Below are positions 31,176 through 61,206 of a stretch of DNA of 64,000 bases, in pieces. The DNA is from Candidatus Yanofskybacteria bacterium RIFCSPHIGHO2_01_FULL_44_17 (GTDB lineage Bacteria; Patescibacteriota; Minisyncoccia; 2-02-FULL-40-12; IGHO2-01-FULL-4-A): the NCBI GenBank assembly GCA_001794195.1, contig MGJI01000006.1, positions 2,650 to 66,649 of the forward strand, written 5' to 3'. Each line of letters begins with the position of its first letter. Position 1 is the stretch's first letter. The translations under genes were made by a program, and so were the position numbers. The notes beneath the pieces are model-generated. The model ran no database searches. It was not told the DNA's origin and saw nothing but the letters and a program-made list of their open reading frames with translations.

Positions 31176-31302
31176 TGCTTGCCTCAGGACTAATTTTAAA
31201 ACAGCTTTATTTTGATGCTACAGCATTTTTTTAAAATTGACAAGTTGGTTTTTTAATTCTAAATTAATATGGTTAAATCGTGTACCTTAAAAAAGGAGAA
31301 GT

Positions 31303-31896
31303 ATGAAAAATAAGGTTTTGGACCTGCTTAAAGCAAGGGCGCTTCTTTATAAAAACCTTGAGGAAAATAGTCGGTTTGTTGAGCAGATAGTTCTTGCCGC
31401 AGAACTTATAAAGAAAACTGTTGATTCCGGAGGCAAGATATTAATTTTCGGCAATGGTGGTTCGGCGACGGATGCTCAGCACCTTGCCGCAGAGCTTGTT
31501 TGTAAGTTTGAAAAGGTGCGCAAGCCGATTGCCGCCCTAGCCCTAACTGCGGATAGCGCGATACTTACTGCACAGAGCAATGACTTTGGATTCGAAACGG
31601 TATTCTCCAGACAGATAGAAGCATTTGCTCGACCAGGAGATACGGTTATCGGCTTTACAACAAGTAACCCATGCTTTAAAAGTATTCAATCCAGGAACAT
31701 TCAGTTAGCGTTTGATATGGCAAAGAGTATTAACGGGCTTAAAAGAGTAGGGTTCTTTAGCTCCAGAACTAAATATCTTTTGGGGCAAGTTGATGTTGCT
31801 ATTGTTGTGCCCAGTGAAAGTACCGCTATCACGCAGGAGGTTCATCAATTTGTGATACATGCGCTTTGCGGTTTGATTGAAGAGGGCCTTTCATAA
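31303..31896 (+). CDS. gmhA: SIS-domain sugar-phosphate isomerase, phosphoheptose isomerase (GmhA)-like
   Basis: KILIFGNGGSATDAQHLAAELV...GDTVIGFTTS SIS motifs. Confidence 0.65.
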   Translation: MKNKVLDLLKARALLYKNLEENSRFVEQIVLAAELIKKTVDSGGKILIFGNGGSATDAQHLAAELVCKFEKVRKPIAALALTADSAILTAQSNDFGFETVFSRQIEAFARPGDTVIGFTTSNPCFKSIQSRNIQLAFDMAKSINGLKRVGFFSSRTKYLLGQVDVAIVVPSESTAITQEVHQFVIHALCGLIEEGLS

Positions 31897-31937
31897 CTTA
31901 AATAGTTTGCTCTAATTTTTTTTGGTTTGAATATTTT

Positions 31938-31962
31938 ACCAGCCCAGAGGTGCTGGTTTTTT
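31938..31962 (+). terminator. Rho-independent terminator
   Basis: ACCAGC-CCAGAGGT-GCTGGT followed by TTTTTT. Confidence 0.65.
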
Positions 31963-32158
31963 AATGCAATACTTTTTTTTAAGTGGTCAATATTGATTTT
32001 AGTTTTATGCTTTGTTTTAATTTATTTATGCAACCAGATCATATTCTTTGCGTCTTATTTTATTTAGTAGGTTATCCGGGGGCGCTTAAACACATTGCAC
32101 AAAAGTAAAAGAAATAAGCAAATTTCGTAATAATTGTTAAAAGACGCTTAAGCTACAT

Positions 32159-33037
32159 ATGGACCTACAAATAGGCGGTAAAAATATAGGATATAATCAT
32201 AGTCATTTTGTTGTTGCTGAAATCGGCATCAATCATAATGGTGATATCAATATTGCCAAACAAATTATTGACGCAGCGGTAATGTATGGTTGTGATGCCG
32301 TCAAGTTTCAGAAAAGAACCGTGGATGTGGTGTATACTCCGGAAGAACTGGCCAGGCCCAGAGAGAACCCATTTGGTCCTACAAACGGTCACTTAAAGCA
32401 TGGTCTTGAATTTGGTAAGGAGCAATATGATGAGATAGACAGATATTGTAAAAGCAAGGGAATTTTATGGTTTGCCTCGCCCTGGGATGAGCAAAGCGTA
32501 GATTTTCTAGAGCAATATAACCCCCCATGTTATAAAATAGCTTCAGCTTGTAATCACGATAAAGAATTGATGGCCCATATAAAATCTAAGGGCCGGCCGA
32601 TGATAGTTTCTACAGGAATGACTGATGATGCGGGCATAGATCGTATTGTTGACTTTTTGGGCGAAGACAGGCTTACTATTTTACATTGTGTATCTACCTA
32701 TCCTGCCAAGGATCATGAGCTTCACTTGGCCAATATACCGCGCATGATTAAAAAATACCCCAAGGCTCATATCGGTTATTCGGGGCACGAAGTCGGTTTA
32801 TTTGCTTCTTTGTTTGCTGCGGCACTGGGTGCCTGTATGATCGAACGGCATATTACGCTAGATAGATCTATGTGGGGATCTGATCAGGCGGCCAGTTTAG
32901 AAGTGGGGGGCTTGGCGAAATTAGTAAAGGAGTTGCGTAGCTTAAAGAGGGACTATATCGGTGAAGATGTCAAATTAGTTTTGGAATCAGAAAAACCGAT
33001 TGAGGCGAAGTTAAGGCGAAAAGCAACGCTCGCATAA
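32159..33037 (+). CDS. NeuB-family nonulosonic/ulosonic acid synthase (N-acylneuraminate-type), lacking the C-terminal SAF domain
   Basis: FVVAEIGINHNGDINIAKQIIDAAVMYGCDAVKFQKRT...ISTGMTD...CVSTYPA. 292 aa. Confidence 0.7.
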   Translation: MDLQIGGKNIGYNHSHFVVAEIGINHNGDINIAKQIIDAAVMYGCDAVKFQKRTVDVVYTPEELARPRENPFGPTNGHLKHGLEFGKEQYDEIDRYCKSKGILWFASPWDEQSVDFLEQYNPPCYKIASACNHDKELMAHIKSKGRPMIVSTGMTDDAGIDRIVDFLGEDRLTILHCVSTYPAKDHELHLANIPRMIKKYPKAHIGYSGHEVGLFASLFAAALGACMIERHITLDRSMWGSDQAASLEVGGLAKLVKELRSLKRDYIGEDVKLVLESEKPIEAKLRRKATLA

Positions 33038-33056
33038 GTTTAAAATAAGTTAAACC

Positions 33057-33080
33057 AAACCGCCAAGCAGGCGGTTTTTT
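33057..33080 (+). terminator. Rho-independent terminator
   Basis: AAACCGCC-AAGCAG-GCGGTTTTTT. Confidence 0.7.
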
Positions 33081-33151
33081 GACAAGCCTTCATTTTCGTG
33101 CTATCCTAATTTTAGCTAAGCAGTTTTTTAACAATCTAAAAAGGAGAGTTA

Positions 33152-34075
33152 ATGGATCCGAGAGCTCTTTTGCTTATTGCTGGTTTTTGTGTTTCTGAGG
33201 CACTCTATAATAACTTCATAGGACTTCAATCAAAAAAGAATCCTGACTTCCGAAACCATACTGCTTTGTTTACGAGCATAATTGGTTGCATTGCGGTTTC
33301 TATGCTGTTTGTGACAAGCTATTTTAGCGGCGGTATGCAGTTAACGCCAGGCTGGTGGAAACCGGTACTTATTACCGGCGGGCTAATCGGTTTTTATTTA
33401 TATGCCGAAGTAAAAGCTTTTTCAATTGGAGATGTATCTCTGGTTGCTCCCATAGCCTCTACAACGCCCGCCAGTATTGTCGTAGCTAGCATGATAATTC
33501 TTGGAGAGACGCCTTCTCGAATTGGTTGGCTTGGAATCTACCTCGTTGTGATGGGCACGTATATAGTAAACATACAAGGATATTTTGAGCAGAGAAAAAA
33601 AGATGGGCAGGCCCTAAGGTTTAAAGATTGGTTTGCTCCGCTTCTTATGTTAAAGAAAAATATGGCGATAAGATATGCATATTTATGTGTGATCATTGCA
33701 ACTATTGCCATTAATTATGAAGCTATGGCAGTAAGAAAGGCAAATGTGGCATTTGCTACAGCTTGTATTTTCGGCATAGGAACAATTCTCAATTGTGCTG
33801 TTGCATATAAAAAAGGAATTACTAGAAGCTCTCTGGGTAGTTTGATGAATAGGTACACTCTGGTTGTGGCCGTATGCCTCTTTTTTAGTGTTTGGTTGCC
33901 TAATCTAGCCTTTCGATATGAAATCGTTCCGTATGTTGGTACCTTGAAAAGATTTCAAATTTTGTTAACCATTGTTCTAGCTTATTTTATCCTTGGTGAA
34001 AAAAAGAATTTTAGAACGCGATTTGTTGGGGCGAGTATTATGCTAGCTGGCCTTACGTTGATTGTCTCCGGATAG
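33152..34075 (+). CDS. 10-TM membrane protein, DMT/EamA-like transporter
   Basis: Two five-helix repeats of hydrophobic segments. No sharper assignment. Confidence 0.45.
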   Translation: MDPRALLLIAGFCVSEALYNNFIGLQSKKNPDFRNHTALFTSIIGCIAVSMLFVTSYFSGGMQLTPGWWKPVLITGGLIGFYLYAEVKAFSIGDVSLVAPIASTTPASIVVASMIILGETPSRIGWLGIYLVVMGTYIVNIQGYFEQRKKDGQALRFKDWFAPLLMLKKNMAIRYAYLCVIIATIAINYEAMAVRKANVAFATACIFGIGTILNCAVAYKKGITRSSLGSLMNRYTLVVAVCLFFSVWLPNLAFRYEIVPYVGTLKRFQILLTIVLAYFILGEKKNFRTRFVGASIMLAGLTLIVSG

Positions 34076-49784: not shown

Positions 49785-50516
49785 ATGGAAAGAGATATTT
49801 ATTCAAAACTCATTGCTATTGTGCCGACATACAATGAACGGCAGACGATAGGCCTTTTGGTCAGAGCTTTTTTTGACGTTCTGCCGTCGGCTTCTATGCT
49901 TGTGGTGGATGATAATTCTCCGGACAAAACAACGGAAGAGGTTGCCAGCTTGAAAAATGAGTTTCCTCGACTGGATTTTTTACTAAGAACTAGCGATAGG
50001 GGATTTGGCAGGTCTTACCGAGATGCTTTGATTAAACTCGTTGGCGACGATCGTTACGATACAGTAGTCATGATGGATGCCGATTTTTCACACGATCCGA
50101 AATATATTCCGGGTATGTTTGATAAGTTGTCGCAATGCAAATGCAAGGTTGTAACTGGTTCAAGATATGTAAGTGGTGGAGGAGCTGAGGGCTGGGGCTG
50201 GAAGAGGGTTTTGTTGAGTCATTTAGCAAGTTTCTATCTCCGCTTAATACTCGGCGTGCCGGTGAGGGATGTAACTTCCGGTTTTTTTGTTTTTAATAAG
50301 AGCGTATTGGCCTCGATAGATTTAGTCTCGCTTCATTCAATGGGCACAGCCATTTTGGTGGAACTAAAATACAAACTTTTCAAAGCTGGCCACAAGATTT
50401 ATGAATATCCGATTGTTGTTGTTGATAGGACGCAAGGCCAGTCTAAAATATCCAAGAAACTTATTTGGGAATCTCTCAAGCTACCACTTAAATTAAGATT
50501 TTCACGTCTTAAGTAA
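49785..50516 (+). CDS. GT2 polyprenyl-phosphate mannose/hexose synthase (Dpm1-like)
   Basis: IAIVPTYNERQTIGLLV...VVDDNSPDKT...DADFSHDPKYIP (DAD motif). Confidence 0.8.
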   Translation: MERDIYSKLIAIVPTYNERQTIGLLVRAFFDVLPSASMLVVDDNSPDKTTEEVASLKNEFPRLDFLLRTSDRGFGRSYRDALIKLVGDDRYDTVVMMDADFSHDPKYIPGMFDKLSQCKCKVVTGSRYVSGGGAEGWGWKRVLLSHLASFYLRLILGVPVRDVTSGFFVFNKSVLASIDLVSLHSMGTAILVELKYKLFKAGHKIYEYPIVVVDRTQGQSKISKKLIWESLKLPLKLRFSRLK

Positions 50517-50574
50517 AAGTTAAATAATTCTTGACTTTTTTAATGAGCCACAGTAATGTTTTTGTAACAATCGT

Positions 50575-51327
50575 ATGGAAATTTATTCACTAATACAGGC
50601 CCGAGGCGGATCCAAGGGTGTTCCTAAAAAAAACCTTAAGCTTTTGGGTGGTTACCCGTTGATCGCATATTCTGTTATGGCCTCTAAGCTTAGCAAGCAC
50701 ATCAAAAGAACCATAGTTTCTACTGATTCGCCGGAAATAGCGGAAGTAGCTAAGAAATACGGTGCTGAAATACCATTTTTGCGTCCGGCAGAATTTGCCC
50801 AAGATCGTTCAACTGATCTTGACGTTTTTGCTCATACTGTTGAGTGGTTAGATAAAAAAGAGGGCAAGCTTCCAGATTTTTTAGTTCAATTTAGACCCAC
50901 GACACCGTTGCGAGAGCCTGTGTTAATCGACGAGGCCATCGAAAAAATTATGGCTAACCCCGGAGCAACCTCTTTACGCTCAGCGCATAAGTTGGCTGAA
51001 CCGCCGCATAAAATGTTACAAATTAGCACTGCCGGTTTTTGGACGGGATTCTTTCCAAATGATCCACGGCCCGAGTATTATAACTTGCCGCGTCAGACGT
51101 TCCCCGATGCCTACCACCCGAATGGTTACGTTGATATTGTAAGGCCGGATTTTATTAAAAATAATCCTGGCTTATTTCTTGGTTCTGTGGTTTTGGCATT
51201 CAATACCCCGTTTACTGTAGAGATTGACCGTCCGGAAGATTTTGAATATTTGGAATATAGTTTTCAAAAACAGCCAAGTCCGTTGCACGAGCATCTTATA
51301 AAAAACTTTCCGAAAGAAAAAGAGTAG
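50575..51327 (+). CDS. CMP-nonulosonate/CMP-ulosonate cytidylyltransferase (NeuA/KdsB-family)
   Basis: YSLIQARGGSKGVPKKNLKLLGGYPLIAYSV...RPTTPLR. Confidence 0.75.
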   Translation: MEIYSLIQARGGSKGVPKKNLKLLGGYPLIAYSVMASKLSKHIKRTIVSTDSPEIAEVAKKYGAEIPFLRPAEFAQDRSTDLDVFAHTVEWLDKKEGKLPDFLVQFRPTTPLREPVLIDEAIEKIMANPGATSLRSAHKLAEPPHKMLQISTAGFWTGFFPNDPRPEYYNLPRQTFPDAYHPNGYVDIVRPDFIKNNPGLFLGSVVLAFNTPFTVEIDRPEDFEYLEYSFQKQPSPLHEHLIKNFPKEKE

Positions 51328-51395
51328 CCGCAACAAATTTTTAGTTATCTGCTAGTGTCTAGTCTAGCAATTTTAAAAATAAAGGAATACAAATT

Positions 51396-52403
51396 ATGCC
51401 ATTACTAAACTGGCTCTGGCCTATTTCATCCGGGGCTTGCGATGCATCTGCCCGTATTGCAATTAAAAAAACCGACGCCCATGGGCTTGTACTTAACGGG
51501 ATTGGGTTATTGATTGGTTTCCCGGTTTTTCTTGTTTGGCTTTGGATTGTCGGAATGCCAGAAATAAAACCACAATTTTGGAATGCCGTAATTTGGCATG
51601 TTCCGATGTATGTTGCCATCCTGATTTGTACCGTTGAAGCTCATAGAGCGGGTACAATGCTAAAGACAATGCCGTTTGCAAGCCTGACTCCTGTTTTTTT
51701 GCTAATTACCAGTCCGATGATGGGGGGCGGCAACCCAACTTTTTGGGGAGCGATTGGGATTGCGATCACGGTTGTTGGGTTATACAGTTTGAATATAGAA
51801 AGGGGACAAAAAAATATTTTCGTTCCCCTTAAGCTTATATTTACCGAACGAGCCGCTCAATTTATGTTCGGCGCAACTCTAATTGCCGCATTAAGTGCGA
51901 ATCTCGATAAAACAGCCATATTGAATTCAAGTCCTGCGTTTTATCTTCTCATTGACCACACGGCGGTAGCTTTCATTTTGATAGCACTGATCTTTTTGCG
52001 CTTAGCTATTTCTGGCCAACTTACCTACAAAAACTCAAGATCTGAAATTGTTACCGTTGGATATTCAGATGTGAAAAAACAGATTTTTTCTTTAAAGGAA
52101 TATAACGCTTTTGTTTGGTACGGATTATTTAATGTTTTTACCGGATTGTTTCACAGCATCGGATTGACTTTTCTGCCGCACGTTCCTTATTTTATAACTG
52201 GCAAAAGGGTTGGGGCTATCATTTTTGCTCTTATTTTCGGGTTATCTATGTGGTATTGGGAAAGAGTCGGCAATATCGATCCGAGCAAAAGAAGATTTAG
52301 CCGCGAGGCGGATAATCTTAGTTGGAGATTGGCTGGGACTTTTCTGGTTGTGGTGGGCATGTCAATCGTGATTCTTTACGGCAAAGCCGAGAGTGCTTTA
52401 TAA
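51396..52403 (+). CDS. polytopic membrane protein (DMT-like transporter?)
   Basis: About 10 hydrophobic segments. Confidence 0.4.
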   Translation: MPLLNWLWPISSGACDASARIAIKKTDAHGLVLNGIGLLIGFPVFLVWLWIVGMPEIKPQFWNAVIWHVPMYVAILICTVEAHRAGTMLKTMPFASLTPVFLLITSPMMGGGNPTFWGAIGIAITVVGLYSLNIERGQKNIFVPLKLIFTERAAQFMFGATLIAALSANLDKTAILNSSPAFYLLIDHTAVAFILIALIFLRLAISGQLTYKNSRSEIVTVGYSDVKKQIFSLKEYNAFVWYGLFNVFTGLFHSIGLTFLPHVPYFITGKRVGAIIFALIFGLSMWYWERVGNIDPSKRRFSREADNLSWRLAGTFLVVVGMSIVILYGKAESAL

Positions 52404-52475
52404 ATAATAGAGCGTCAATTGTGGCGCTTTTTTGTTAGAGTTTACATAATTTTATTTTTAATGTAGTCTTATTCC

Positions 52476-53882
52476 ATGTCGAGCTATCAATTCCATCTTA
52501 CACCTCAAAAAGTCCCACACGTTAAAACAAAGTTTAGGACCATAAAGACAAAAATTCCTGCTCCGGAGACCCTCAGTCTTATTCAGGAAACCAAAAAATA
52601 TGGTCCGAACTTAATGCACGGACAGTTACCGGTTGCCTGGAATAAGGCTATTGATTTTAATGTTTTTGATAAAGCAGGCAATAAATGGATAGATTTTACT
52701 TCAACCATCTTTGTGGCTAATGCCGGTCACGCCAACCCAAGAATTAAGAAGGCCATAAAGGACCAGCTTGATAGTGACCTGCTGCACTCTTACAATTATC
52801 CAACGGAACCGAGAGTAAAATTTTTAAAAAAGCTTCTGCAGATGTCGCCCTCTTTTTGTGAGAAGGGTCTTTTATTTTCTGCCGGAACTGAATCAACAGA
52901 GGCTGCGATTCAGCTAATGAAGATGTACGGACAGCACAAGTTAAAAGACAAAGCCAGAATAGATATTATTTCATTTCAGGGTAATATGCACGGAATTACT
53001 ATGGGAGCGGAAATGATGAAGGGCAACCCCAAAATTTTGGAGGTCTACGGTTTTTCCGATCCACATGTTTATAGATTGCTGTTTCCTTATCCGTGGGAAA
53101 GCGGGGGAGATAAAAAATACGATTGGAAGGCCAGGTTTTATAAAGACATCGAAAACTTGAAGAAAAAAGGAATGAGAATTAATAAGGTATGCGGTTTTAT
53201 GATTGAGGCATATCAAGGCTGGGGCGCCTTATTTTATCCGAAAACCTATATTCAGGAATTAGAAAAATTTGCCAAAAAGAACAAAATTTTAATTACGATT
53301 GATGAAATTCAAGGTTGTTGCGGCCGTACCGGAAAAATGTTCGTTTTTGAACATTACGGTATCAAGCCGGACCTTCTGTGCGTGGGCAAGGGGTTGAGCA
53401 GTAGTTTGCCACTCTCGGCCGTTATCGGCAGAAAGGACATATTAAATCTTCCGGAAATATCCGGTTCTTGGCACAGCACTCATTCCGGAAATCCCGTGTG
53501 TTGCGCTGCGGGACTGGCTAATCTGGAAGAAATTGAGGCCAGAAATTTAGTAAAAGAATCAGCAAGAAAGGGGAAAATACTTTTCGGCGGTCTCGATGAC
53601 ATGAAAAAGAAATATCCTAAATTGATTTCTCACATTTTTGGAAGTGGTTTACTGGCAGCAATTTTATTTAAACATCCTAAAACTGGCCAACCCGAAAGTG
53701 AATTTCCTACTAGAGTTTGTGAGTTAGCCATGCAAAAAGGATTATTGATGGTTCACACTGGTCGTGAATCAATCAAAATCGCTCCGCCTCTTACAATTCA
53801 CGATGCGGCGTTAAGGGAGGGCTTAAAAGTTTTAGAGGAGTCCATAGAAGAAATTATACAAGAAGAAAGTAGCTACCGATAA
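52476..53882 (+). CDS. class III PLP-dependent aminotransferase
   Basis: DEIQGCCGRTGKMFVFEHYGIKPDLLCVGKGLSS (PLP-lysine region) and GTESTEAAIQL. Confidence 0.8.
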   Translation: MSSYQFHLTPQKVPHVKTKFRTIKTKIPAPETLSLIQETKKYGPNLMHGQLPVAWNKAIDFNVFDKAGNKWIDFTSTIFVANAGHANPRIKKAIKDQLDSDLLHSYNYPTEPRVKFLKKLLQMSPSFCEKGLLFSAGTESTEAAIQLMKMYGQHKLKDKARIDIISFQGNMHGITMGAEMMKGNPKILEVYGFSDPHVYRLLFPYPWESGGDKKYDWKARFYKDIENLKKKGMRINKVCGFMIEAYQGWGALFYPKTYIQELEKFAKKNKILITIDEIQGCCGRTGKMFVFEHYGIKPDLLCVGKGLSSSLPLSAVIGRKDILNLPEISGSWHSTHSGNPVCCAAGLANLEEIEARNLVKESARKGKILFGGLDDMKKKYPKLISHIFGSGLLAAILFKHPKTGQPESEFPTRVCELAMQKGLLMVHTGRESIKIAPPLTIHDAALREGLKVLEESIEEIIQEESSYR

Positions 53883-53885
53883 AAA

Positions 53886-54824
53886 ATGATTTATTCAAAA
53901 CTGGGTATGACAAATTTAAAAGTTTCGCGTCTTGGTCTTGGTACGGCCGAGATTGGTTTTGCTTATGGTATCGGACCGCGATCTTTGCCTTCGGAAGATG
54001 AGGCCATTAAACTTCTTAACAGCGCGGTTGAACTGGGTATAACATATTTTGATACCGCTAGCCTGTATGGTCTTGCTGAAGAACGGATAGGAAGATCGGG
54101 CATACTTAAAAACCGTGGCGTTGTGGTGGGCACTAAGTGTGGTAACTTTTTAGATAAAAAATTAGATCTATCTCCTGAAGAAATGAAAAAAACCATCGGG
54201 CAAGAGATAGGGGCAAGCTTAAAAAACCTAAAAACCGATCATCTTCAACTGTTGTTATTTCATGGCGGTACCCCAGAGCTTATAATAAATTCTGGTTTAA
54301 TGGACTTTATGCAAAAAATGAAAACCGATGGTACTATCGGGTACATTGGCATTAGCACGCGCGGCGAAGAAGCGCCGATAAAGGCAATTGAAAGTGGCGT
54401 CTTCGATGTCGTCCAGACGGCGTATAGCATTTTAGACCAAAGAATGAGAGAGAATGTTTTGTCTGCGGCAGAGAAAAAAGGCGTAGGCATAATAAATAGA
54501 TCGGTTCTGCTAAAAGGTAGCTTGACCCAGGCTGTTAAATATTTGCCAGCTGGCCTAGAGCTACTTATGCAAAATTCTGCCAAAGCGGAGACTATTGCCG
54601 TAAAAAACGGAATGGATCTGCCAACCTTGGCGATAAGATTTGCGATTTCAAATAGTTCAATTTCAACGTCTCTAGTCGGTACAAACCGGTTGGATAATTT
54701 GAGTAAGTCTGTGGCAGCCGTTGAATCTGGGGCGCTTTCAAATGAAATATTGGCCGAACTTTATGGATTAGGCATTTCTGACCCAAAACAAGTTGACCCC
54801 GCCCTTTGGCCGCCACTCTTGTAA
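53886..54824 (+). CDS. aldo/keto reductase
   Basis: GLGTAEIGFAYG...YFDTASLYG. Confidence 0.8.
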   Translation: MIYSKLGMTNLKVSRLGLGTAEIGFAYGIGPRSLPSEDEAIKLLNSAVELGITYFDTASLYGLAEERIGRSGILKNRGVVVGTKCGNFLDKKLDLSPEEMKKTIGQEIGASLKNLKTDHLQLLLFHGGTPELIINSGLMDFMQKMKTDGTIGYIGISTRGEEAPIKAIESGVFDVVQTAYSILDQRMRENVLSAAEKKGVGIINRSVLLKGSLTQAVKYLPAGLELLMQNSAKAETIAVKNGMDLPTLAIRFAISNSSISTSLVGTNRLDNLSKSVAAVESGALSNEILAELYGLGISDPKQVDPALWPPLL

Positions 54825-54935: not shown

Positions 54936-55517
54936 GTGGAACAAATAAGTCTGAGCAATTTAGCATGGGGAATTAAGGCGGTTATTTCTGACGTTGATGG
55001 CGTATTTACTGACAATCGTGTTCTTGAAGGGGCGCCCTATAAAGCTAAGTGGCGGAGTTATTACGATGGTCAGGGCGTCTCATTACTTAGGGCTATTGGC
55101 ATTCGTGTTTGCCTGATTACTAATGAGAAAGGTGACTCCGCAAAACACATTGTGGATGTGGTAGAAAAATGGAATAATCTTCCGTCTTCGGAAAAAACTC
55201 CTGGCGATGGCGGTTGGCATCATGTGAAACTATATCCTGGTATGGGCGGAATAAAGAAAGTAATTGCGGCCGAAGAGTGGCTCAAAGAAATTGGGATATC
55301 GTTCGAACACTGCGCTTTCATGGGCGATGATTTAGTAGACGCCCCTCTTTTGCAGAAAGTATCCTTGCGTGCCGCGCCAATTAGTGGTGATCCGGCAATA
55401 AAAAGAATGGCTCATTTTGTATCTGAAAGAGTCGGTGGCATGGGAGCTTTCCGTGATTTCGCTAACTTCATTCTAGAGGCTCGAGGAATTGATCCGCTAT
55501 CCTTGTCGCCGCAATAA
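54936..55517 (+). CDS. HAD-IIIA phosphatase, KdsC/YrbI-like (ulosonate-phosphate phosphatase family); GTG start
   Basis: IKAVISDVDGVFTDNRV motif I. GGAGGT RBS 8 nt upstream of GTG 54936. Confidence 0.7.
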   Translation: MEQISLSNLAWGIKAVISDVDGVFTDNRVLEGAPYKAKWRSYYDGQGVSLLRAIGIRVCLITNEKGDSAKHIVDVVEKWNNLPSSEKTPGDGGWHHVKLYPGMGGIKKVIAAEEWLKEIGISFEHCAFMGDDLVDAPLLQKVSLRAAPISGDPAIKRMAHFVSERVGGMGAFRDFANFILEARGIDPLSLSPQ

Positions 55518-55522
55518 AATTA

Positions 55523-55552
55523 AAAACCCTGGGTTTCAGGGTTTTGTTTTTT
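55523..55552 (+). terminator. Rho-independent (bidirectional) terminator
   Basis: AAAACCCTG-GGTTT-CAGGGTTTT followed by GTTTTTT. Sits between convergent genes. Confidence 0.75.
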
Positions 55553-56285
55553 ATAATTTGCATGCTTGATTCAGTATCATTACTGCCTCATCCGATCTTC
55601 TTTGGTGCTCTTCGGTGCCAATCGGCATTTCTCCTCGTAGAAATAATAATATCTCTTGGCGTTGTTTTTCTAGCGCATGAGGTGATTCGTCAGACGTATT
55701 TATGTAAAGAGGCGTGTAGTGAACGGGCGGAATCTCTATTTGTTTGGCGCCGCGCAGAAAGCCTTCAGAATCAAATACACTGGCATTAGATTTATTTCCG
55801 GAGACTTCTAATTCGCGTAGGCGATATTGGATTCTTCGTCTCACAGTTTCTAGGTTACAGTAAAGGTAAATACAGCGAAAATCTATTTTTATGGATTGCT
55901 TAGATGGTGGCAGGTCATCCCTGTTGGCCTCCTCTTTCTCGATAGTTTGCAAATACCAATTTGCGCTGTCGATCATTTCAACGAATGGTTTTTGGTGGGC
56001 CTCTCTGGTAAGCATTACCGATTCAAGAAACATGGCCGGTGGCCGTTCAATAATCAGCCTCCTTTTTACTTCAAATCTTGTTGCCTCATTCTTAAAAATA
56101 TGTTCGGTTTTTGTAATGTCAGTATCGCTCTTGTTTCCCCAAAGAAGTTTGCGGATGTCGTCCATGGCTACCGTTTGGGCATTTTGGAATTCAGAAAGAC
56201 CCATTGCCCAATTTCTGAAAAAAGATTTACCGCTAAAAACCAGTCCCGAAAAAACCACAACCAATAAGCGGTTGTTACCTTCCAT
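55551..56285 (-). CDS. P-loop kinase, deoxynucleoside/NMP-kinase-like (paralog A, 244 aa)
   Basis: Walker A VVVFSGLVFSGKSF. Arg-rich lid ETVRRRIQYRLRELE. C-terminal INTSDESPHALEKQRQEIL typical of small-molecule P-loop kinases. Confidence 0.5.
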   Translation of the reverse strand: MEGNNRLLVVVFSGLVFSGKSFFRNWAMGLSEFQNAQTVAMDDIRKLLWGNKSDTDITKTEHIFKNEATRFEVKRRLIIERPPAMFLESVMLTREAHQKPFVEMIDSANWYLQTIEKEEANRDDLPPSKQSIKIDFRCIYLYCNLETVRRRIQYRLRELEVSGNKSNASVFDSEGFLRGAKQIEIPPVHYTPLYINTSDESPHALEKQRQEILLFLRGEMPIGTEEHQRRSDEAVMILNQACKL

Positions 56286-57020
56286 CTACTGCCTCCTTTT
56301 GCGTGTTAAGATATAGGATCTAATGACCTGCTCACGCGCAAAATCTGCTTGTGGAGATTCGTCCGAGGTATCTATTTTTACAAAAGGATAGTAATTACCC
56401 GGTGGCTCAAATCCATGTTGTCCTTTGCGAAATTCAGAAATCGTAACCAAACCTCCCCCGGTTTGATCTAAGCCCTTCCTGCGACTTGTCAGGCGTTTAA
56501 TACTGGTGGCTTCATCGCAGGTCATCCAGAACACGCTTAAATTGATATTGACCAGCTTAAATTCAATAGCTTCCAGTGGTATTCTTGATTGACGCGCTTT
56601 TTGTTCGCGCAACTTTCTGCACATAAGAAGTTCGGTTTCCGAAATCATGCGCATGAACGGTAGTTGATGGGCACTTTGTGTAAGCATGGTCATATTGGCT
56701 ATCACGACATCGACACCGTTAATTATGAATTGTTTTTTGATTTCTAGTAGAGTTATTTCGTTCTTAAGCAGATGATCGGCATCAGTCATATCTTCACTTT
56801 TGCCCCAATATTGCTTGCGGGCCTGAGAGATACCAATGAAAACAACTTTTTGGCTGGGACGTTCGGATCTGTATATCTCTGCTACCTTGTTAGCCCAAAA
56901 GTCCTTTCCGCTAGTACCAAGTCCGCAAAAAAGAACCACTTGTTTCATCGGCCCAGCTCCTCCCAAGTTTTCAAATAACCGATTTGCGTATATAATAGAT
57001 GAGTTAAGGGCACATGTCAA
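56286..57020 (-). CDS. P-loop kinase, deoxynucleoside/NMP-kinase-like (paralog B, 244 aa)
   Basis: Walker A-like VVLFCGLGTSGKDF. Lid SIKRLTSRRKGLD. C-terminal IDTSDESPQADFAREQVI. Its stop codon directly abuts the start of paralog A. Confidence 0.5.
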   Translation of the reverse strand: MTCALNSSIIYANRLFENLGGAGPMKQVVLFCGLGTSGKDFWANKVAEIYRSERPSQKVVFIGISQARKQYWGKSEDMTDADHLLKNEITLLEIKKQFIINGVDVVIANMTMLTQSAHQLPFMRMISETELLMCRKLREQKARQSRIPLEAIEFKLVNINLSVFWMTCDEATSIKRLTSRRKGLDQTGGGLVTISEFRKGQHGFEPPGNYYPFVKIDTSDESPQADFAREQVIRSYILTRKRRQ

Positions 57021-57072
57021 CTGGTCAACTGTTTCCTTGACTTCCGGTAGTATTTTCCTCTACAGTAAAATT

Positions 57073-57591
57073 ATGCAAAAATTATCATTTAAGGTTTCAG
57101 AAAAGCTAAAATATATCAGGTTAATCGCTTTTGACTTTGATGGGGTTTTCACAAATGGATTATTTATGTTGAGTCAAGATGGCACGGAAAGCATTATTTG
57201 CAATCGAAGAGATAGCTGGGGCCTTAATGAGATGAAACGGTTGGGTATTAAAATGGTTGTAATTAACAAGGGGCTTGATCCTGCCGTGAGTAAGCGTTGT
57301 CAAAAACTGAAACTTGAGTATAAGTACGATGCGACCAAGGATAAACTTTCAATTCTAAAAGATGTGCTGGTACGAGAACAAGTAAAACCAGAATCAGTTC
57401 TTTACGTTGGCGACGACACGATTGATTTGCCGTGTTTAAAATATGCAGGTTTAGCAGTTACCGTGGCTGACGGAGCGTCTGAATGTAAAAAGGCCGCTGA
57501 TTATATCACTGAGAAAAACGGAGGCCAGGGAGCCGTGAGGGAACTTTGTGAATTGATTGTGGTGGCCAAGGGAGGTCTTAGCCGAACATAA
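57073..57591 (+). CDS. HAD-IIIA phosphatase, KdsC-like (start at the internal Met; the ORF-track N-terminal extension overlaps the divergent gene)
   Basis: IRLIAFDFDGVFTNGLF motif I. GDDTIDLP motif III. Confidence 0.7.
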   Translation: MQKLSFKVSEKLKYIRLIAFDFDGVFTNGLFMLSQDGTESIICNRRDSWGLNEMKRLGIKMVVINKGLDPAVSKRCQKLKLEYKYDATKDKLSILKDVLVREQVKPESVLYVGDDTIDLPCLKYAGLAVTVADGASECKKAADYITEKNGGQGAVRELCELIVVAKGGLSRT

Positions 57592-57595
57592 AACC

Positions 57596-58147
57596 ATGAA
57601 AATTTCAAAAAAAAAACTTTTTGAAAAACTCCGTAGTCTAAGATTAATAGGATTTGATTTTGATGGTATTTTTACTGATGCAAAAGTAATTCTTAGCGAG
57701 AACGGCCTTGAGAGTGTTGTTTGCAGTCGACGGGACGGGTTGGGTATAAATGAGCTCCAGCGTCTAGGTATTAAATTAGTCGTTATATCAAAAGAGCCAA
57801 ATAAAATCGTGGCTACCCGCTGCGCTAAATTAAAAATCGAGTGCGCTCACGGGGTTGATCACAAGCTGTCATTATTTAAAAAAATCCTTGACCGAGAGAA
57901 AATTAAACCCAAATACGCGGCTTTTATGGGGGATGACTTTAATGATCTAGAATGTATGCGCTATGCCGGGGTTGCCCTAACAGTCGCTGATGCTTACCAT
58001 TTGAATAAAAAAGTATCCCACTATATTACTCAAAAAAACGGTGGTCACCACGCCATAAGAGAGGTGGCGGATATGGTTGTAGAAGCGCGAGAAGGAAAGA
58101 GGAATCAAAAAGCCGCTTTTAATGCGGCCACACCTCTCATTTTATAA
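57596..58147 (+). CDS. HAD-IIIA phosphatase, KdsC-like (tandem paralog)
   Basis: LRLIGFDFDGIFTDAKV. GDDFNDLE. RBS AAGGGAGG upstream of ATG 57596. Confidence 0.7.
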   Translation: MKISKKKLFEKLRSLRLIGFDFDGIFTDAKVILSENGLESVVCSRRDGLGINELQRLGIKLVVISKEPNKIVATRCAKLKIECAHGVDHKLSLFKKILDREKIKPKYAAFMGDDFNDLECMRYAGVALTVADAYHLNKKVSHYITQKNGGHHAIREVADMVVEAREGKRNQKAAFNAATPLIL

Positions 58148-58171
58148 ACTCGGTAGGGACTTTACTAATTA

Positions 58172-59344
58172 CTACCTCCCTCTGGATAATGTTTTTTGCC
58201 ATGCAGTAGTAAGACCCGCTATCTCATCTGCCGTTGAAGCGAATCGTAGAGCGCGGAGGTGCTCTTTTTTAAAATAAGAACCGAATATCTTCTGACACGC
58301 CTTGAGATTATTGGGAGCAAAACTCTCGTGAGCAATAATAAGTTTTTGGCGTTGTAGACTTGGAAATCCCTTTTTTACTAAATCTTTGTTAATGTGCATA
58401 ACCCTGTGGAATACAGTAAGGAACTTGGCTTGGGTCCCCAGTCCTCCCTGGAAAAACACGGCGACATCAAGGTCTTCACATGATTGAGCATTTCTAGCCT
58501 CAAAACGTCCCGGAAATGTTTTCAGTATGGTTGTTTTGGTTTGTTCAGTAGTTCTCCCTGGCATAAAAGTATAAGCACATGAGACGGCATCTGGCTTTTG
58601 TTCTCGGGCCCTGTGTACTCCTATGGCCGCAGCTTCAGGAACACCATTGGGCCCACCGTTTGTCATAATGGTATGGCCCTGAAGAGCCAAAAGGCATGCT
58701 GTCTCTTGAGCAATTCTTCGCACTTCTTCAGTTGCTTGCTCGCCAGTGCCAGTAATTAGGATGTTTAGCCGCCTTGTGGTTTCGGGTCGGGCGGCGTTTT
58801 GTTTGGCTGTCACTATAAGATCGCAAACCTCACGTACGGCTCCTTCTCCCCCCCCCTTTTGAGTTACATAGCTGGCAATCTTTTTAATATCTTCGATCCC
58901 GTCAGCAACGCATACCGGAACGCCGACGATGTTCATAACGCCAAAGTCACTCATGTCGTCACCGACAAAGCAGACTTCCTGAAGGCTAATTTCCGGAGAT
59001 TCTTTTTGAAGCCACTCTGTCAAACTCATCACCTTGTCTTTAGTCTGAAGGCAGGGAATATTCATCTTTGAGCATCTTGCTTGTACATAGCCGCTTCTTT
59101 GGCCTGTTATCATCACGACCTTCAAATCAATTTCTGGCTTTCTTACCAAATCTATGCCTTGGCCGTCCCTGTGGGAAAAGCGTGCAATTTCTACAACTGA
59201 ATTATGCGGCCTACCCTCATATTGTTGCGAAGATTTAGGGTCCATAATAACGCCGGTTTCAATGTAGGCAGGCGTAAGAACCCCGTCGCAATCTAGGGCT
59301 AGCAACCTAACTCTCCTAAACTTATCCAATAGTTTTTCGTCCAT
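58172..59344 (-). CDS. fusion protein: N-terminal KdsC-like HAD phosphatase + C-terminal LOG/TIGR00730-like Rossmann domain
   Basis: N-terminus LLALDCDGVLTPAYI...VGDDMSDF. C-terminus TNGGPNGVPEAAAIG and FFQGGLGTQAKF resemble the LOG-family GGxGxMEA / PGGxGTxEE motifs. Confidence 0.5.
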   Translation of the reverse strand: MDEKLLDKFRRVRLLALDCDGVLTPAYIETGVIMDPKSSQQYEGRPHNSVVEIARFSHRDGQGIDLVRKPEIDLKVVMITGQRSGYVQARCSKMNIPCLQTKDKVMSLTEWLQKESPEISLQEVCFVGDDMSDFGVMNIVGVPVCVADGIEDIKKIASYVTQKGGGEGAVREVCDLIVTAKQNAARPETTRRLNILITGTGEQATEEVRRIAQETACLLALQGHTIMTNGGPNGVPEAAAIGVHRAREQKPDAVSCAYTFMPGRTTEQTKTTILKTFPGRFEARNAQSCEDLDVAVFFQGGLGTQAKFLTVFHRVMHINKDLVKKGFPSLQRQKLIIAHESFAPNNLKACQKIFGSYFKKEHLRALRFASTADEIAGLTTAWQKTLSRGR

Positions 59345-59501: not shown

Positions 59502-60353
59502 GTGTCAACGCACAGAAATAATATGAATAAAAATACGCTAAAACAGTTTGACTTACAGAAACAGATATGTGTTATAACCGGTGGGGCAGGGTTTCTTGGT
59601 GTGCAGCATGCTGAAGCGTTGTTAGATGGCAATGGCAGAGTTGTTCTGATTGACGTAAACCAAGCCAGACTTCAAGAAAAAGTTGTTCAGCTCAAAAAAG
59701 GGTATCCCCGCAGAGTTTGGGGTTATCAGCTGGATATTACTGATGAGGCCGCAGTTAAAAAAGTGGTCAATAAAATTGAAAAAGAAGTCAGGCCGATTGG
59801 AGTTTTAATTAATAATGCTGCCAATAATCCGCAGGTTGGCCAGGGTCAGAAGGATTTTTCTCGACTTGAACTTTTTCCAAAAGATGTTTGGCAAAAGGAT
59901 TTTGACGTTGGCGTTACCGGAGCATTTCTTATGAGTAAATATATAGGTCCCTTAATGGCTGAAAGGGGAGTGGGTGTTATTCTCAACGTTGCTTCAGATT
60001 TGGGTGTAATCGCGCCCGACCAGAGACTTTACAAAAAGGATGGACTCAAAGCGAGCCAGCAGCCGGTAAAGCCGATTACCTATTCTGTTACCAAGCACGC
60101 TCTGATCGGTTTAACCAAATACTTGGCTACTTATTGGGCGGATATGGGCGTTAGAGTAAATTCTATTTCGCCGGGCGGGGTTTATAACAACACTCCAGAG
60201 GATTTTGTTAAAAAACTGACCACTTTGATACCTTTGGGCCGTATGGCCCAAGCGGATGAGTATAAGGCCGCAATTTTATTTTTGTGTTCCGATGCCTCAT
60301 CTTATATGACCGGGGCTAACCTTGTAATTGATGGAGGCAGAACGTGTTGGTAA
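59502..60353 (+). CDS. short-chain dehydrogenase/reductase (SDR)
   Basis: VITGGAGFLGVQHAEAL...NNAA...YSVTKHAL. Confidence 0.8.
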   Translation: MSTHRNNMNKNTLKQFDLQKQICVITGGAGFLGVQHAEALLDGNGRVVLIDVNQARLQEKVVQLKKGYPRRVWGYQLDITDEAAVKKVVNKIEKEVRPIGVLINNAANNPQVGQGQKDFSRLELFPKDVWQKDFDVGVTGAFLMSKYIGPLMAERGVGVILNVASDLGVIAPDQRLYKKDGLKASQQPVKPITYSVTKHALIGLTKYLATYWADMGVRVNSISPGGVYNNTPEDFVKKLTTLIPLGRMAQADEYKAAILFLCSDASSYMTGANLVIDGGRTCW

Positions 60354-60357
60354 GAAA

Positions 60358-61206
60358 ATGAACAAAAAACATTCAACCGGTATAATGCAAGGCAGACTGA
60401 CCCCGCCAAAAGGCAGGGGAATTCAGTTTTTTCCTTTTGATGGTTGGCAGAGTGAGTTCGAAAAAGCCCAAGGCCTGGGCCTAAATGATATAGAATTTAT
60501 TTTTGATCTAGACCAATACGAGAGCAATCCTCTCTGGACAGACGGCGGTGTGTCCGAGATCCAAAGCTTGATTAATAAGAGCGGCGTATTAGTTAATAAT
60601 ATTTGTGGCGACTTCTTTATGCGTCGCCCGTTTTTTAGAGTCGAGGAAAATGTACGAAAAGAAAATGTAGAAGTTTTAAAAAAACTAATTGTTAGCGCGT
60701 CAAATATAGGTGCCAGAAATGTCGAGATACCGATTTTAGACAATTCGTCTCTGAAAACCAAAGAGGAAGAGGACATATTAGTAAGATCCTTAACGGAATG
60801 TTTAGAGACCGCTCGATCTAATAATATTATTCTGTCTGTTGAGGCTGATTTGCCACCGGTAAAACTTCTGAATCTTTTAAAAAAGTTTCCTGGCCATCAA
60901 GTCAAGGTGGTTTATGACAGTGGCAATAGTTCTGGCCTTGGCTATGATCCTTACGAGGAAGTTACTACGCTTGGCGATTTCATAATCAATGCTCACATAA
61001 AGGATAGAGTTTTAGGCGGTGGCACGGTTTCACTGGGCACGGGTTCCGCTGATTTTGATAAATTGTTTACTGGGTTAAAAAAAATAAATTATCAAGGAGC
61101 TTTTACTCTTCAGGCGGCTAGGGGTTCCGATGGTAATGAATCAGAAACCACAAACACATACCTAAACTTTTTGGCGCCATATCTGGCCGGGTTAAGATCC
61201 TACTGA
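60358..61206 (+). CDS. sugar-phosphate isomerase/epimerase, xylose-isomerase-like TIM barrel
   Basis: About 280 aa with alternating beta/alpha pattern, metal-ligand-like E/D/H positions, IINAHIKD. Assignment is moderate. Confidence 0.55.
   Translation: MNKKHSTGIMQGRLTPPKGRGIQFFPFDGWQSEFEKAQGLGLNDIEFIFDLDQYESNPLWTDGGVSEIQSLINKSGVLVNNICGDFFMRRPFFRVEENVRKENVEVLKKLIVSASNIGARNVEIPILDNSSLKTKEEEDILVRSLTECLETARSNNIILSVEADLPPVKLLNLLKKFPGHQVKVVYDSGNSSGLGYDPYEEVTTLGDFIINAHIKDRVLGGGTVSLGTGSADFDKLFTGLKKINYQGAFTLQAARGSDGNESETTNTYLNFLAPYLAGLRSY

Follow-up and report, generated by a model that had tools for sequence, protein, structure and literature searches.

Gene content of the locus

A block of six genes lies at positions 54936-59344 of the window, the 64-kb stretch of a Candidatus Yanofskybacteria (Patescibacteria) genome that was analyzed and that in its entirety is a glycan-biosynthesis island. 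All six open reading frames are present where an earlier sequence-only reading had placed them. Together they encode four KdsC/YrbI-type HAD domains, two P-loop kinase paralogs and one HAD-SLOG fusion (F), and are arranged with two regulatory-type signals as follows:

54936..55517, plus strand: HAD_A, a divergent KdsC/KDN-9-P-phosphatase-like C0 HAD of 193 aa (profile searches, alignment)
55523..55545, readable on both strands: terminator-like hairpin between the convergent HAD_A and kinB genes (consensus scan only)
55551..56285, minus strand: kinB, an unclassified P-loop small-molecule kinase of 244 aa (motifs, AF2 model, Foldseek)
56286..56948, minus strand: kinC, a divergent kinase paralog, 220 aa (the open reading frame extends to 57020)
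56992..57020, minus strand: promoter-like TTGACA-17-TATTAT, 11/12 matches, 5' of the kinC ATG (consensus scan only)
57073..57591, plus strand: HAD_D, a KdsC/YrbI-type phosphatase of 172 aa with Asn in motif II (TIGR01670)
57596..58147, plus strand: HAD_E, a KdsC/YrbI-type phosphatase of 183 aa, tandem paralog of HAD_D (TIGR01670)
58175..58768, minus strand: C-terminal SLOG (LOG/MCP-like) domain of F, residues 193-390, with motifs ITGTG, TNGGxNGVP, ExRN and GGLGTxxK
58796..59344, minus strand: N-terminal KdsC-type HAD of F, residues 1-183, its four motifs invariant among orthologs

The promoter-like site sits in the divergent region common to kinC and HAD_D.

KdsC-type HAD phosphatases

The proposal of four KdsC-like HAD domains, one of them fused, was correct, and by motif all four are catalytically intact. 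Alignment shows that DxDG, the motif III Lys and GDDxxD are kept in every one, with a motif II residue that is Thr or Ser in HAD_A, HAD_E and F, and Asn in HAD_D. Measured against the 106.95-bit cutoff of NCBIfam TIGR01670, the KdsC/YrbI subfamily, HAD_D (121.1 bits) and HAD_E (120.2 bits) pass, while the HAD half of F (100.2 bits) and HAD_A (69.5 bits) fall below. In the same NCBIfam searches, no HAD of the block reaches the equivalog cutoff for KDN-9-P phosphatase or the one for KdsC (208 bits).

HAD_D and HAD_E are, as had been claimed, stand-alone tandem paralogs (49% identical). The 251-aa open reading frame of HAD_D is most likely over-extended, with the true start at ATG 57073; HAD_E most likely starts at 57596. 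Matches to HAD_E in the PDB are AQ2171 and KdsC (E=1e-23 to 1e-27), and its orthologs in two of the related Patescibacteria loci compared below (L010 and L013) reach 72% identity. HAD_A carries the motifs DVDG, T62, K and GDDLVD, with an insertion of ~17 aa between motifs II and III. Its top NCBIfam match is KDN-9-P phosphatase (84 bits), and orthologs in L001 and L009 are 62-66% identical.

The kinase pair

The sequence-only reading had described two abutting, paralogous kinases of 244 aa each. Their paralogy stands, as do the Walker A motifs and lid arginines; the common length does not, the kinC product being likely 220 aa from a start that is most likely the ATG at 56948, 3' of the promoter-like sequence. 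The two proteins are 32% identical (E=1e-25), share the NTSDES motif in addition to Walker A and the lid arginines, and are encoded such that the kinC stop codon directly abuts the kinB ATG.

KinB displays Walker A GLVFSGKS, MDDIR, TEHxFKNE, MLTxxAHQxPF, the lid RRRIxYR and NTSDES. No curated family in Pfam or NCBIfam places either kinase (AAA_33 is under its gathering threshold), neither matches a dNK or NMP-kinase family in these collections, and a PDB sequence search with the kinases gave no significant match. Foldseek neighbors of the AF2 model of kinB (pLDDT 89.8) are APS kinase, gluconate kinase and PFK-2, with deoxycytidine kinase (dCK) at rank 48. In this model, the kinB fold is closest to kinases that phosphorylate a hydroxyl on a sugar, a sugar acid or APS ribose. 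The best matches, APS kinase and gluconate kinase (E ~3e-6 to 1e-5; target-normalized TM 0.65-0.69), have the same fold, Walker A, Asp after strand 2 and Arg-rich lid, but identity to kinB is just 10-16%, neither Pfam APS_kinase nor any NCBIfam model matches, and the family described here has TEHxFKNE, MLTxxxHQxPF, NTSDES and an additional C-terminal helix. The suggestion that the kinases are dNK/NMP-kinase-like is thus not upheld, nor was IxTSDESP confirmed as a deoxynucleoside-kinase signature. The family is present in 5 of 185,579 species genomes.

KinC departs from its partner at two otherwise canonical positions: Asp replaces Ser/Thr in Walker A (GLGTSGKD), and Ser replaces the Asp of MDDxR (GISQAR). 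These deviations are conserved in the ortholog of locus L012, which also adjoins a canonical-motif kinase paralog, and the GKD/SQAR type has been seen only in such a position (the window and L012); the lone C-like kinase of L019 has canonical GKS and LDEVR. Conservation of the changes, their restriction to loci with an adjacent canonical paralog and the abutting stop and start codons all fit kinC being a non-catalytic or mechanistically altered partner in a kinB-kinC heteromer, rather than one of two independent kinases. We advance this only tentatively, at somewhat less than even chances, as only five kinC-type sequences are known, the Asp following the Walker Lys might still bind Mg2+, and kinC retains the lid arginines and other motifs.

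The HAD-SLOG fusion

Structural alignment gives 34-35% identity between the HAD of F and E. coli YrbI; motif I of this HAD is followed by a low-confidence insertion of ~17 aa. Pfam PF18306 (SLOG cluster4) matches residues 193-310 at 34.0 bits (gathering score 26.3), placing the C-terminal half within the SLOG superfamily and bearing out the earlier proposal of a HAD fused to a LOG-type Rossmann domain; TIGR00725 (E=8e-5) and TIGR00730 (E=0.012) match weakly. The closest structures to this domain are molybdenum-cofactor carrier protein and TIGR00725/LOG proteins. It differs from that branch of the superfamily in that Lys invariably takes the place of the catalytic Glu in the LOG motif PGGxGTxxE (the LOG Arg is retained), in its position C-terminal to a KdsC-type HAD, and in forming a very narrow clade, with 4 representatives at 50% identity among 1.84 billion. 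All full-length relatives found are HAD fusions. Inter-domain geometry in the F model is uncertain (pTM 0.54).

In L010, L013, L014 and L015 the gene at the corresponding position encodes an F-type HAD without SLOG; the core phosphatase therefore carries the SLOG domain only as an optional extra. Judged from its sequence and by analogy, the LOG-like domain is most likely not a phosphoribohydrolase. It may instead bind a phosphorylated ligand or a nucleotide ligand (e.g., ulosonate phosphate, CMP or CMP-sugar) and would then regulate the phosphatase or hand it substrate, a role proposed from one residue change plus analogy.

Genomic context in Patescibacteria

The block belongs with genes on either side and, within the proposed pathway, with a distal core elsewhere in the window:

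29394..34075: distal core of the proposed pathway
29394-31175, minus strand: B12-binding radical-SAM enzyme (~580 aa in related loci)
31303-31896: GmhA-like SIS isomerase
32159-33037: NeuB-family synthase
33152-34075: second EamA
49785..54824, plus strand: upstream GT2, CTP_transf_3 cytidylyltransferase (50575-51327), EamA transporter, class-III aminotransferase and aldo-keto reductase (AKR)
59502..61206, plus strand: downstream gluconate-5-dehydrogenase-like SDR and xylose-isomerase-like TIM barrel

The ulosonic-acid genes that had been noted elsewhere in the window, for the NeuB-family synthase and the cytidylyltransferase, are thus present; the latter is a PseF/KdsB-like CMP-sugar synthetase. 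The SIS protein resembles phosphoheptose isomerase (148 bits, under the cutoff), and the TIM barrel is L-ribulose-5-P 3-epimerase-like by a weak match (61 bits).

Fourteen related Patescibacteria loci were compared (L numbers). Genes of the block recur beside those for a NeuB-type synthase, a radical-SAM enzyme and a CMP-sugar synthetase, often joined by a GmhA-like isomerase gene, and in 11 of the 14 NeuB and/or the radical-SAM enzyme lies no more than 10 kb away, although these come from related genomes and are not independent. Orthologs of F (L001, L003, L008, L019, L020) are accompanied by NeuB, the radical-SAM enzyme, SDR and TIM barrel, usually with CTP_transf_3 and AKR; those of kinB (L008, L010-L015) by KdsC-like HADs, NeuB, radical-SAM enzyme, SIS and CTP_transf_3. 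Each of the window's three outlying groups is found next to block genes elsewhere: orthologs of the upstream genes co-localize with the HAD-SLOG gene in L008 and L019, SDR and TIM barrel adjoin it in L003, L008, L019 and L020, and distal-core genes adjoin HAD and kinase genes in L010, L013, L014 and L019. In L019 the contiguous order is two NeuB, two EamA, CTP_transf_3, aminotransferase, AKR, HAD-SLOG, kinase, SDR and TIM barrel. Coupling of kinase and phosphatase is tight in L017 (Saccharibacteria), where the stop codon of the kinase gene and the start of a KdsC-like HAD gene overlap, the latter gene being followed by a transketolase-like one, and in L009, where the HAD_A ortholog is directly 3' of that of kinB. 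L009 has no NeuB within 10 kb, and L001 and L003, which have the HAD-SLOG gene, have no kinB/kinC homolog within that distance.

The conserved neighbors are therefore NeuB, CTP_transf_3, radical-SAM, GmhA-like SIS, EamA transporters and sugar oxidoreductases, and no nucleotide-metabolism, effector or sensor genes are among them in the related loci. With the kinase family and the HAD-SLOG fusion both very rare, the block is not a routine conserved CPR salvage operon.

A proposed ulosonic-acid pathway and its alternatives

We consider it probable, though well short of certain, that the six genes handle the phosphate steps of a pathway, specific to Patescibacteria, that makes a CMP-activated ulosonic (KDN/Kdo/sialic-acid-like) sugar for a surface glycan. 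The glycan-gene context, the intact HAD motifs and the kinB fold speak for this. Action on phosphorylated sugar intermediates beside ulosonic-acid genes, a secondary idea of the sequence-only reading, fits the gene-neighborhood evidence. The pathway we infer would proceed via phosphorylated intermediates. KinB, possibly complexed with the divergent kinC, would phosphorylate a sugar or sugar-acid precursor; the GmhA-like isomerase, TIM barrel, SDR, AKR and class-III aminotransferase, all of types acting on sugar phosphates or sugar acids, would tailor the intermediate; the NeuB-type synthase would then condense an aldose phosphate with PEP. The KdsC-type HADs would take off the phosphate(s), with paralogs A, D, E and F probably accepting different intermediates, and the CTP_transf_3 enzyme would make the CMP-sugar. 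Against this reading, a kinase is not obviously needed if the SIS isomerase draws aldose phosphate from central metabolism, and NeuB and the radical-SAM gene of the window are ~22-25 kb away from the block; L001 and L003, kinase-free at the 10-kb scale, and L009, NeuB-free at that scale, count against it as well.

The first of these points also favors a different use of the kinases, in which they would permanently phosphorylate the completed ulosonic acid or glycan (compare Kdo phosphorylation) or re-phosphorylate scavenged free sugar so that it re-enters the pathway, with the HADs trimming or proofreading and no kinase supply to the NeuB step. The tight kinase-HAD coupling in L017 and L009, and the kinase-less L001 and L003 with their NeuB and HAD-SLOG genes, are compatible with this. 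It nonetheless seems unlikely, as an operon-coupled kinase and phosphatase fit transient phosphorylation better and the kinase family is not in any characterized decoration pathway. Quite unlikely, too, is a catalytic SLOG domain that is bifunctional with the HAD, for example in cleaving CMP or CMP-sugar (at an N-glycosidic or phosphodiester bond) ahead of dephosphorylation.

SLOG domains bind nucleotides or ligands and occur in conflict systems (PMC6459960), F matches a Pfam family of that superfamily, and dNKs and NMP kinases are among the P-loop kinases with the kinB fold (dCK is at rank 48). The main idea of the sequence-only reading, a nucleotide-centric module whose kinases and phosphatases, together with a LOG-type N-glycosidase, would serve in (deoxy)nucleotide salvage, interconversion or depletion, perhaps for conflict or immunity, is very improbable given that none of the six proteins matches a PADLOC model, the kinases fall in no dNK or NMP-kinase family, the LOG Glu is replaced, every HAD domain is a KdsC-type sugar-acid phosphatase, the SLOG domain is dispensable, and the conserved neighbors are glycan genes.

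Comparison with known systems

The Bacteroides KDN route consists of NeuB, a C0 HAD and a cytidylyltransferase; in B. thetaiotaomicron these are KDN-9-P synthase, the KDN-9-P phosphatase BT1713 and CMP-KDN synthetase. The proposed Patescibacteria pathway would differ in having four HAD domains rather than one, all under the KDN-9-P phosphatase equivalog cutoff, two unclassified P-loop kinases, the SLOG fusion, and the extra B12/radical-SAM enzyme, aminotransferase, AKR, SDR and TIM barrel. The vertebrate sialic-acid route runs from kinase to synthase, phosphatase and CMP synthetase (GNE kinase, NANS, NANP, CMAS), whereas here the kinase is P-loop instead of ROK-type and the phosphatase KdsC-type instead of NANP-type. 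Like the Kdo pathway (KdsD-KdsA-KdsC-KdsB), the genes described here include a SIS sugar-phosphate isomerase, a KdsC-type phosphatase and a CTP_transf_3 activator, but the synthase is of the NeuB and not the KdsA type, and the SIS protein resembles GmhA, not KdsD.

Genes of the block

The block at 54936-59344 carries six genes, confirmed by ORF listing, that encode three stand-alone KdsC/YrbI-type HAD proteins (HAD_A, HAD_D and HAD_E, the last two in tandem), a pair of P-loop kinase paralogs (kinB and kinC) and protein F, in which an N-terminal KdsC-type HAD domain is fused to a C-terminal, LOG-like SLOG domain. The combination of four HAD domains, two kinases and one HAD-SLOG fusion, first noticed in a sequence-only reading, is borne out by the ORF listing and by family searches; it is real and far beyond chance. 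The genes are as follows.

54936-55517 (+): HAD_A, from the ORF listing
55551-56285 (-): kinB, from the ORF listing
56286-57020 (-): ORF of kinC, most likely start ATG at 56948, from public gene calls and junction sequences
56836-57591 (+): ORF containing HAD_D, most likely start ATG at 57073, from the DxDG motif and ortholog alignments
57557-58147 (+): ORF containing HAD_E, most likely start at 57596, from public gene calls and junction sequences
58172-59344 (-): F, from the ORF listing

The HAD_D start was placed at ATG 57073 because of the position of the DxDG motif and the ortholog alignments. A promoter-like TTGACA-17-TATTAT is located 5' of the kinC start, the kinC stop codon is directly abutted by the kinB ATG, and a terminator-like hairpin separates kinB from the convergent HAD_A. 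Neither tRNA genes nor Rfam families were found across the window.

KdsC-type phosphatases

The KdsC/YrbI subfamily of HAD-IIIA proteins is defined in NCBIfam by TIGR01670, with a curated cutoff of 106.95 bits applied to the whole-protein score. HAD_D (121.1 bits) and HAD_E (120.2 bits), which are 49% identical to one another, exceed this value and are thus members of the subfamily; F (100.2 bits, from its N-terminal half) and HAD_A (69.5 bits) score below it and are therefore only KdsC-like. The more specific equivalog models were not reached, the best scores being 135.7 against a cutoff of 208 for KdsC (NF007019) and 94.9 against 180 for KDN-9-P phosphatase, the latter model being the best NCBIfam match of HAD_A. 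The fold is of the capless C0 type and superposes on KdsC. All four HAD domains keep the DxDG, the motif III Lys and GDDxxD; motif II has Ser/Thr in HAD_A, HAD_E and F, and Asn in HAD_D. Across F orthologs, catalytic motifs I-IV are invariant.

Two of these proteins contain insertions of about 17 amino acids: in F a low-confidence stretch follows straight after HAD motif I (residues ~29-53), and in HAD_A the insertion follows motif II (residues ~78-100). These are the sites where HAD enzymes bear C1 and C2 caps, and the insertions could be "mini-caps" that tune substrate choice between the paralogs.

The HAD-SLOG fusion protein

SLOG cluster4 (Pfam PF18306) matches F at residues 193-310 with 34.0 bits (gathering threshold 26.3; E=2.7e-8), and the same match is precomputed for the F orthologs P0001-P0011. 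For the LOG phosphoribohydrolase family (TIGR00730 / PF03641), F stays below the TIGR00730 cutoff (15.4 bits vs 96.35), as it does below that of TIGR00725 (22.1 bits vs 106.9). In the structure model each domain is confident and the inter-domain geometry is not (pLDDT 84.8, pTM 0.54). The SLOG half is a LOG-type Rossmannoid fold in which the conserved LOG Arg is retained. A profile built from ten SLOG domains matches 6y01, which we take to be a cyanobacterial Moco carrier protein (MCP) homolog (E=1.4e-7), 1rcu (0.0024), 2iz5 (0.018) and LOGs (0.04-0.09).

Comparison table for F (entry, protein, value)
2iz5, Chlamydomonas Moco carrier protein, 20.4
1weh, TT1887, 20.1
5wq3, type-II LOG, 20.0
1rcu, TM1055, 19.1
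3maj, DprA, 15.1

The PGGxGTxxE motif with its catalytic Glu is absent from F, which reads QGGLGTQAK. When LOG and F-type SLOG domains are aligned, PGG(F/L)GTL(E/D)EL of the former corresponds to QGGLGTxAK of the latter, whose Lys is invariant in 10/10 orthologs and stands opposite the Glu of 6y01, 1rcu, 9us2 and 5zbj. In LOG enzymes the Glu is catalytic and phosphate is held by the GGxGT loop. Because F has Lys in place of that Glu, its SLOG domain would, by analogy with these known roles, be a binder of a phosphorylated or nucleotide ligand and not a phosphoribohydrolase.

The fusion is rare. Eleven full-length homologs share its two-domain architecture at 44-76% identity, the only named one among them being from Patescibacteria, and the identical F sequence is present on 16 contigs in several public metagenome collections. 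An exhaustive phmmer search of 1.84 billion cluster representatives with the SLOG half returned four proteins, namely three full-length HAD fusions and one sequence of 172 aa that is 99% identical to F and spans its SLOG half alone; this search returned no stand-alone or otherwise-fused relatives.

Binding of Moco by the SLOG domain, as suggested by the MCP similarity and by a Mo-co_dimer gene in related locus L009, was considered and set aside since the linkage is inconsistent: the Mo-co_dimer-domain protein gene (L009 8806-9816) lies directly 5' of a kinB ortholog there, and this arrangement is absent from other loci.

The kinase pair

The kinB and kinC proteins are 32% identical (E=1e-25). 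Their sole family match is a sub-threshold one to AAA_33 (PF13671; 19.7 bits for kinB and 22.9 for kinC, gathering threshold 27), for which a precomputed match is present in some orthologs. PDB searches with the kinases, as single sequences and as profiles, gave nothing significant. AlphaFold2 gives kinB a confident model (pLDDT 89.8, pTM 0.86), whose best Foldseek matches in the PDB are APS kinases, gluconate kinases, the putative kinase Caur_3907 and PFK-2, with E of about 3e-6 to 5e-5 and TM of 0.65-0.69 normalised to the target. A deoxynucleoside kinase (dNK) identity is rejected, as neither protein has a Pfam or NCBIfam match to dNK or NMP-kinase families and deoxycytidine kinase first appears at rank 48 of the kinB Foldseek list.

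Motifs invariant in the kinase family are GLxxSGK, (M)DxxR, TEHxFKNE, MLTxxxHQxPF, two lid arginines and NTSDES. Departures occur in kinC and its ortholog in locus L012, where Walker A has GKD instead of GK[S/T] and Ser replaces the Asp of MDDxR (GISQAR). Each of these two adjoins a kinase paralog with canonical motifs, and the lone C-like kinase of locus L019 is itself canonical; this pattern of sequence motifs suggests that kinC may be a non-catalytic or altered partner of the adjoining kinase. A survey of 185,579 species-representative genomes turned up the kinB family in 5, every one of them from Patescibacteria and two of these from Saccharibacteria. A Candidatus Yanofskybacteria MAG encodes a protein with exactly the kinB sequence. 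Five relatives of kinC were found.

Genomic context and related loci

The entire window is a surface-glycan island with many GT1/GT4 and GT2 glycosyltransferases, PMT_2 proteins and epimerases. Upstream, the block is flanked by a GT2, a CTP_transf_3 protein (PseF/KdsB-like), an EamA protein, a class-III aminotransferase and an AKR, and downstream by a gluconate-5-dehydrogenase-like SDR and a TIM barrel weakly like L-ribulose-5-P 3-epimerase. A further group of genes, some 22-25 kb upstream, encodes a B12-binding radical-SAM enzyme, a GmhA-like SIS isomerase, a NeuB-family synthase and a second EamA.

Window proteins were mapped onto 14 related loci, among them a few near-duplicates. CTP_transf_3, SIS, EamA, SDR, TIM barrel, AKR and aminotransferase genes recur across them, and NeuB and/or the radical-SAM enzyme (~580 aa) lies 10 kb or less away in 11/14. 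In L019 the order is contiguous: two NeuB, two EamA, CTP_transf_3, aminotransferase, AKR, HAD-SLOG, kinase, SDR and TIM barrel. The HAD_A ortholog adjoins kinB in L009, and in the Saccharibacteria locus L017 the stop codon of the kinase gene and the start of a KdsC-like HAD gene overlap, the latter being followed by a transketolase-like gene. Loci L001 and L003 have the fusion, with the kinB/kinC homolog absent within 10 kb. At the same position in L010, L013, L014 and L015, adjoining the radical-SAM gene, is an F-type HAD (52-56% identical) without SLOG, which marks the SLOG domain as an optional extension of a core phosphatase. The AKR/SDR/TIM-barrel module tends to accompany SLOG in a sample of loci that is small and from related genomes.

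Proposed pathway

The domain calls of the sequence-only reading (KdsC-type HADs, P-loop kinases and, in F, a SLOG domain now assigned to PF18306) were correct. Its preference for a nucleotide-centric module of salvage, depletion or conflict, with a sugar pathway second, found no support: with dNK matches lacking, the anti-phage defence models of PADLOC-DB 2.0 giving zero matches at E<=0.01 for the six block proteins, and the conserved context consisting of glycan genes, a nucleotide-conflict module is rejected.

The most economical reading has the block handle phosphate in a so far uncharacterised Patescibacteria pathway to an ulosonic acid. NeuB, a KdsC-type HAD and CTP_transf_3 make up the logic of the Bacteroides KDN pathway; a SIS isomerase, KdsC and CTP_transf_3 that of the Kdo pathway; and the succession of kinase, synthase, phosphatase and then CMP synthetase that of the vertebrate sialic-acid pathway. 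The GmhA-like isomerase and UlaE-like TIM barrel come from families whose substrates are sugar phosphates, and so fit a route in which the intermediates keep their phosphate until the HADs act. After phosphate removal, the class-III aminotransferase and either the SDR or the AKR might oxidise and aminate a terminal carbon, a proposal modelled on Kdo8N biosynthesis. The pathway type is known; the block elaborates it in a rare and lineage-restricted form, with a new domain architecture and a kinase family that is unclassified. Literature searches found nothing on KdsC with SLOG, CPR with NeuB, or Patescibacteria with nonulosonic acid.

A fuller, joint version of the ulosonic-acid reading, doubtful as a whole, would have an undescribed, Patescibacteria-only route in which the P-loop kinase and its pseudo-kinase-like paralog gate entry through phosphorylation and specialised KdsC paralogs remove phosphates from successive intermediates. 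The Glu-to-Lys switch would repurpose the LOG fold to bind a ulosonate phosphate or CMP-ulosonate, and this binding would put the phosphatase under allosteric or channelling control. The product, possibly unusual, might be a terminally aminated, C-methylated ulosonic acid, or a longer-chain one made from a heptose phosphate that the conserved GmhA-like isomerase provides. If true, the SLOG superfamily would gain ulosonate phosphate or CMP-ulosonate as a new class of ligand.

Patescibacteria (CPR) are host-attached organisms with tiny genomes, and for this reason surface glycans probably matter for their lifestyle; here an organism of that kind still spends more than 64 kb on glycan synthesis. 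Within this uncharacterised pathway, which would make a sialic-acid-like sugar, the block offers as biochemical targets an unclassified kinase family, a possible kinase/pseudo-kinase pair and a fusion of a sugar-acid phosphatase to a LOG-fold domain whose active-site residue is charge-reversed. Knowing the substrates could bring a new ulosonic acid to light and show the SLOG fold serving in regulation or on something other than nucleotides. The block also cautions that not every neighbourhood of SLOG and kinase is a nucleotide-conflict system.

Other genes of the island and its relatives

The NeuB homolog (32159-33037, +) has just 292 aa; its match to the NeuB_NnaB model stops at position 278/329, and no SAF/antifreeze-like C-terminal domain was matched. 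The radical-SAM enzyme (29394-31175, -; about 580-590 aa) has P-methyltransferase families (Sden_1168, PhpK) and other B12/radical-SAM families among its best NCBIfam matches, which are weak and of partial coverage. A link to phosphonates or P-methylation was set aside on the weakness of the match (49.8 bits vs a cutoff of 575), and no PEP-mutase gene was noticed in the searches made.

The 393-aa product of 62118-63299 (+) has counterparts at L003 14729-15817 and L019 1082-2224 (35-72% identity); in all three genomes its gene lies near those for HAD-SLOG, the SDR and the TIM barrel. It has no Pfam or NCBIfam match and is an uncharacterised member of the HAD-SLOG cluster. For two large ORFs located among sugar-modifying genes, 48052-49782 (+; 576 aa) and 43175-44827 (-; 550 aa), Pfam gave no family at E<=0.001; they might encode polymerases, flippases or glycosyltransferases of a novel kind. 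Inside the island (21470-22150, -), and also in the unrelated Patescibacteria locus L003 (2295-2966), is a 223-226-aa ORF that weakly matches IS200-like Y1 transposases; rather than an active insertion sequence, this may be a Y1 protein that is domesticated or REP-associated.

Genes that could serve sulfation lie in related loci at L012 1361-3187 and 17821-18729 and at L010 13342-14229: a sulfotransferase and, in L012 additionally, an ATP-sulfurylase/APS-kinase fusion. Some relatives may thus sulfate their glycan; none of these genes was found in the parts of the window examined.

Three further genes suggest that the island also holds a pathway of its own for a deoxysugar that is branched-chain or C-methylated:

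39867-41693 (-): three-domain TPP enzyme
41863-43101 (-): DegT aminotransferase
45542-46789 (-): C-methyltransferase (Methyltransf_13/14)

Just past the right end of the window (L005 1-4259) are genes for a SIS isomerase, a GHMP kinase, an NTP_transferase-HAD fusion and a dTDP-sugar isomerase, a GDP-heptose-type set that is the island's second kinase/HAD-phosphatase sugar pathway.
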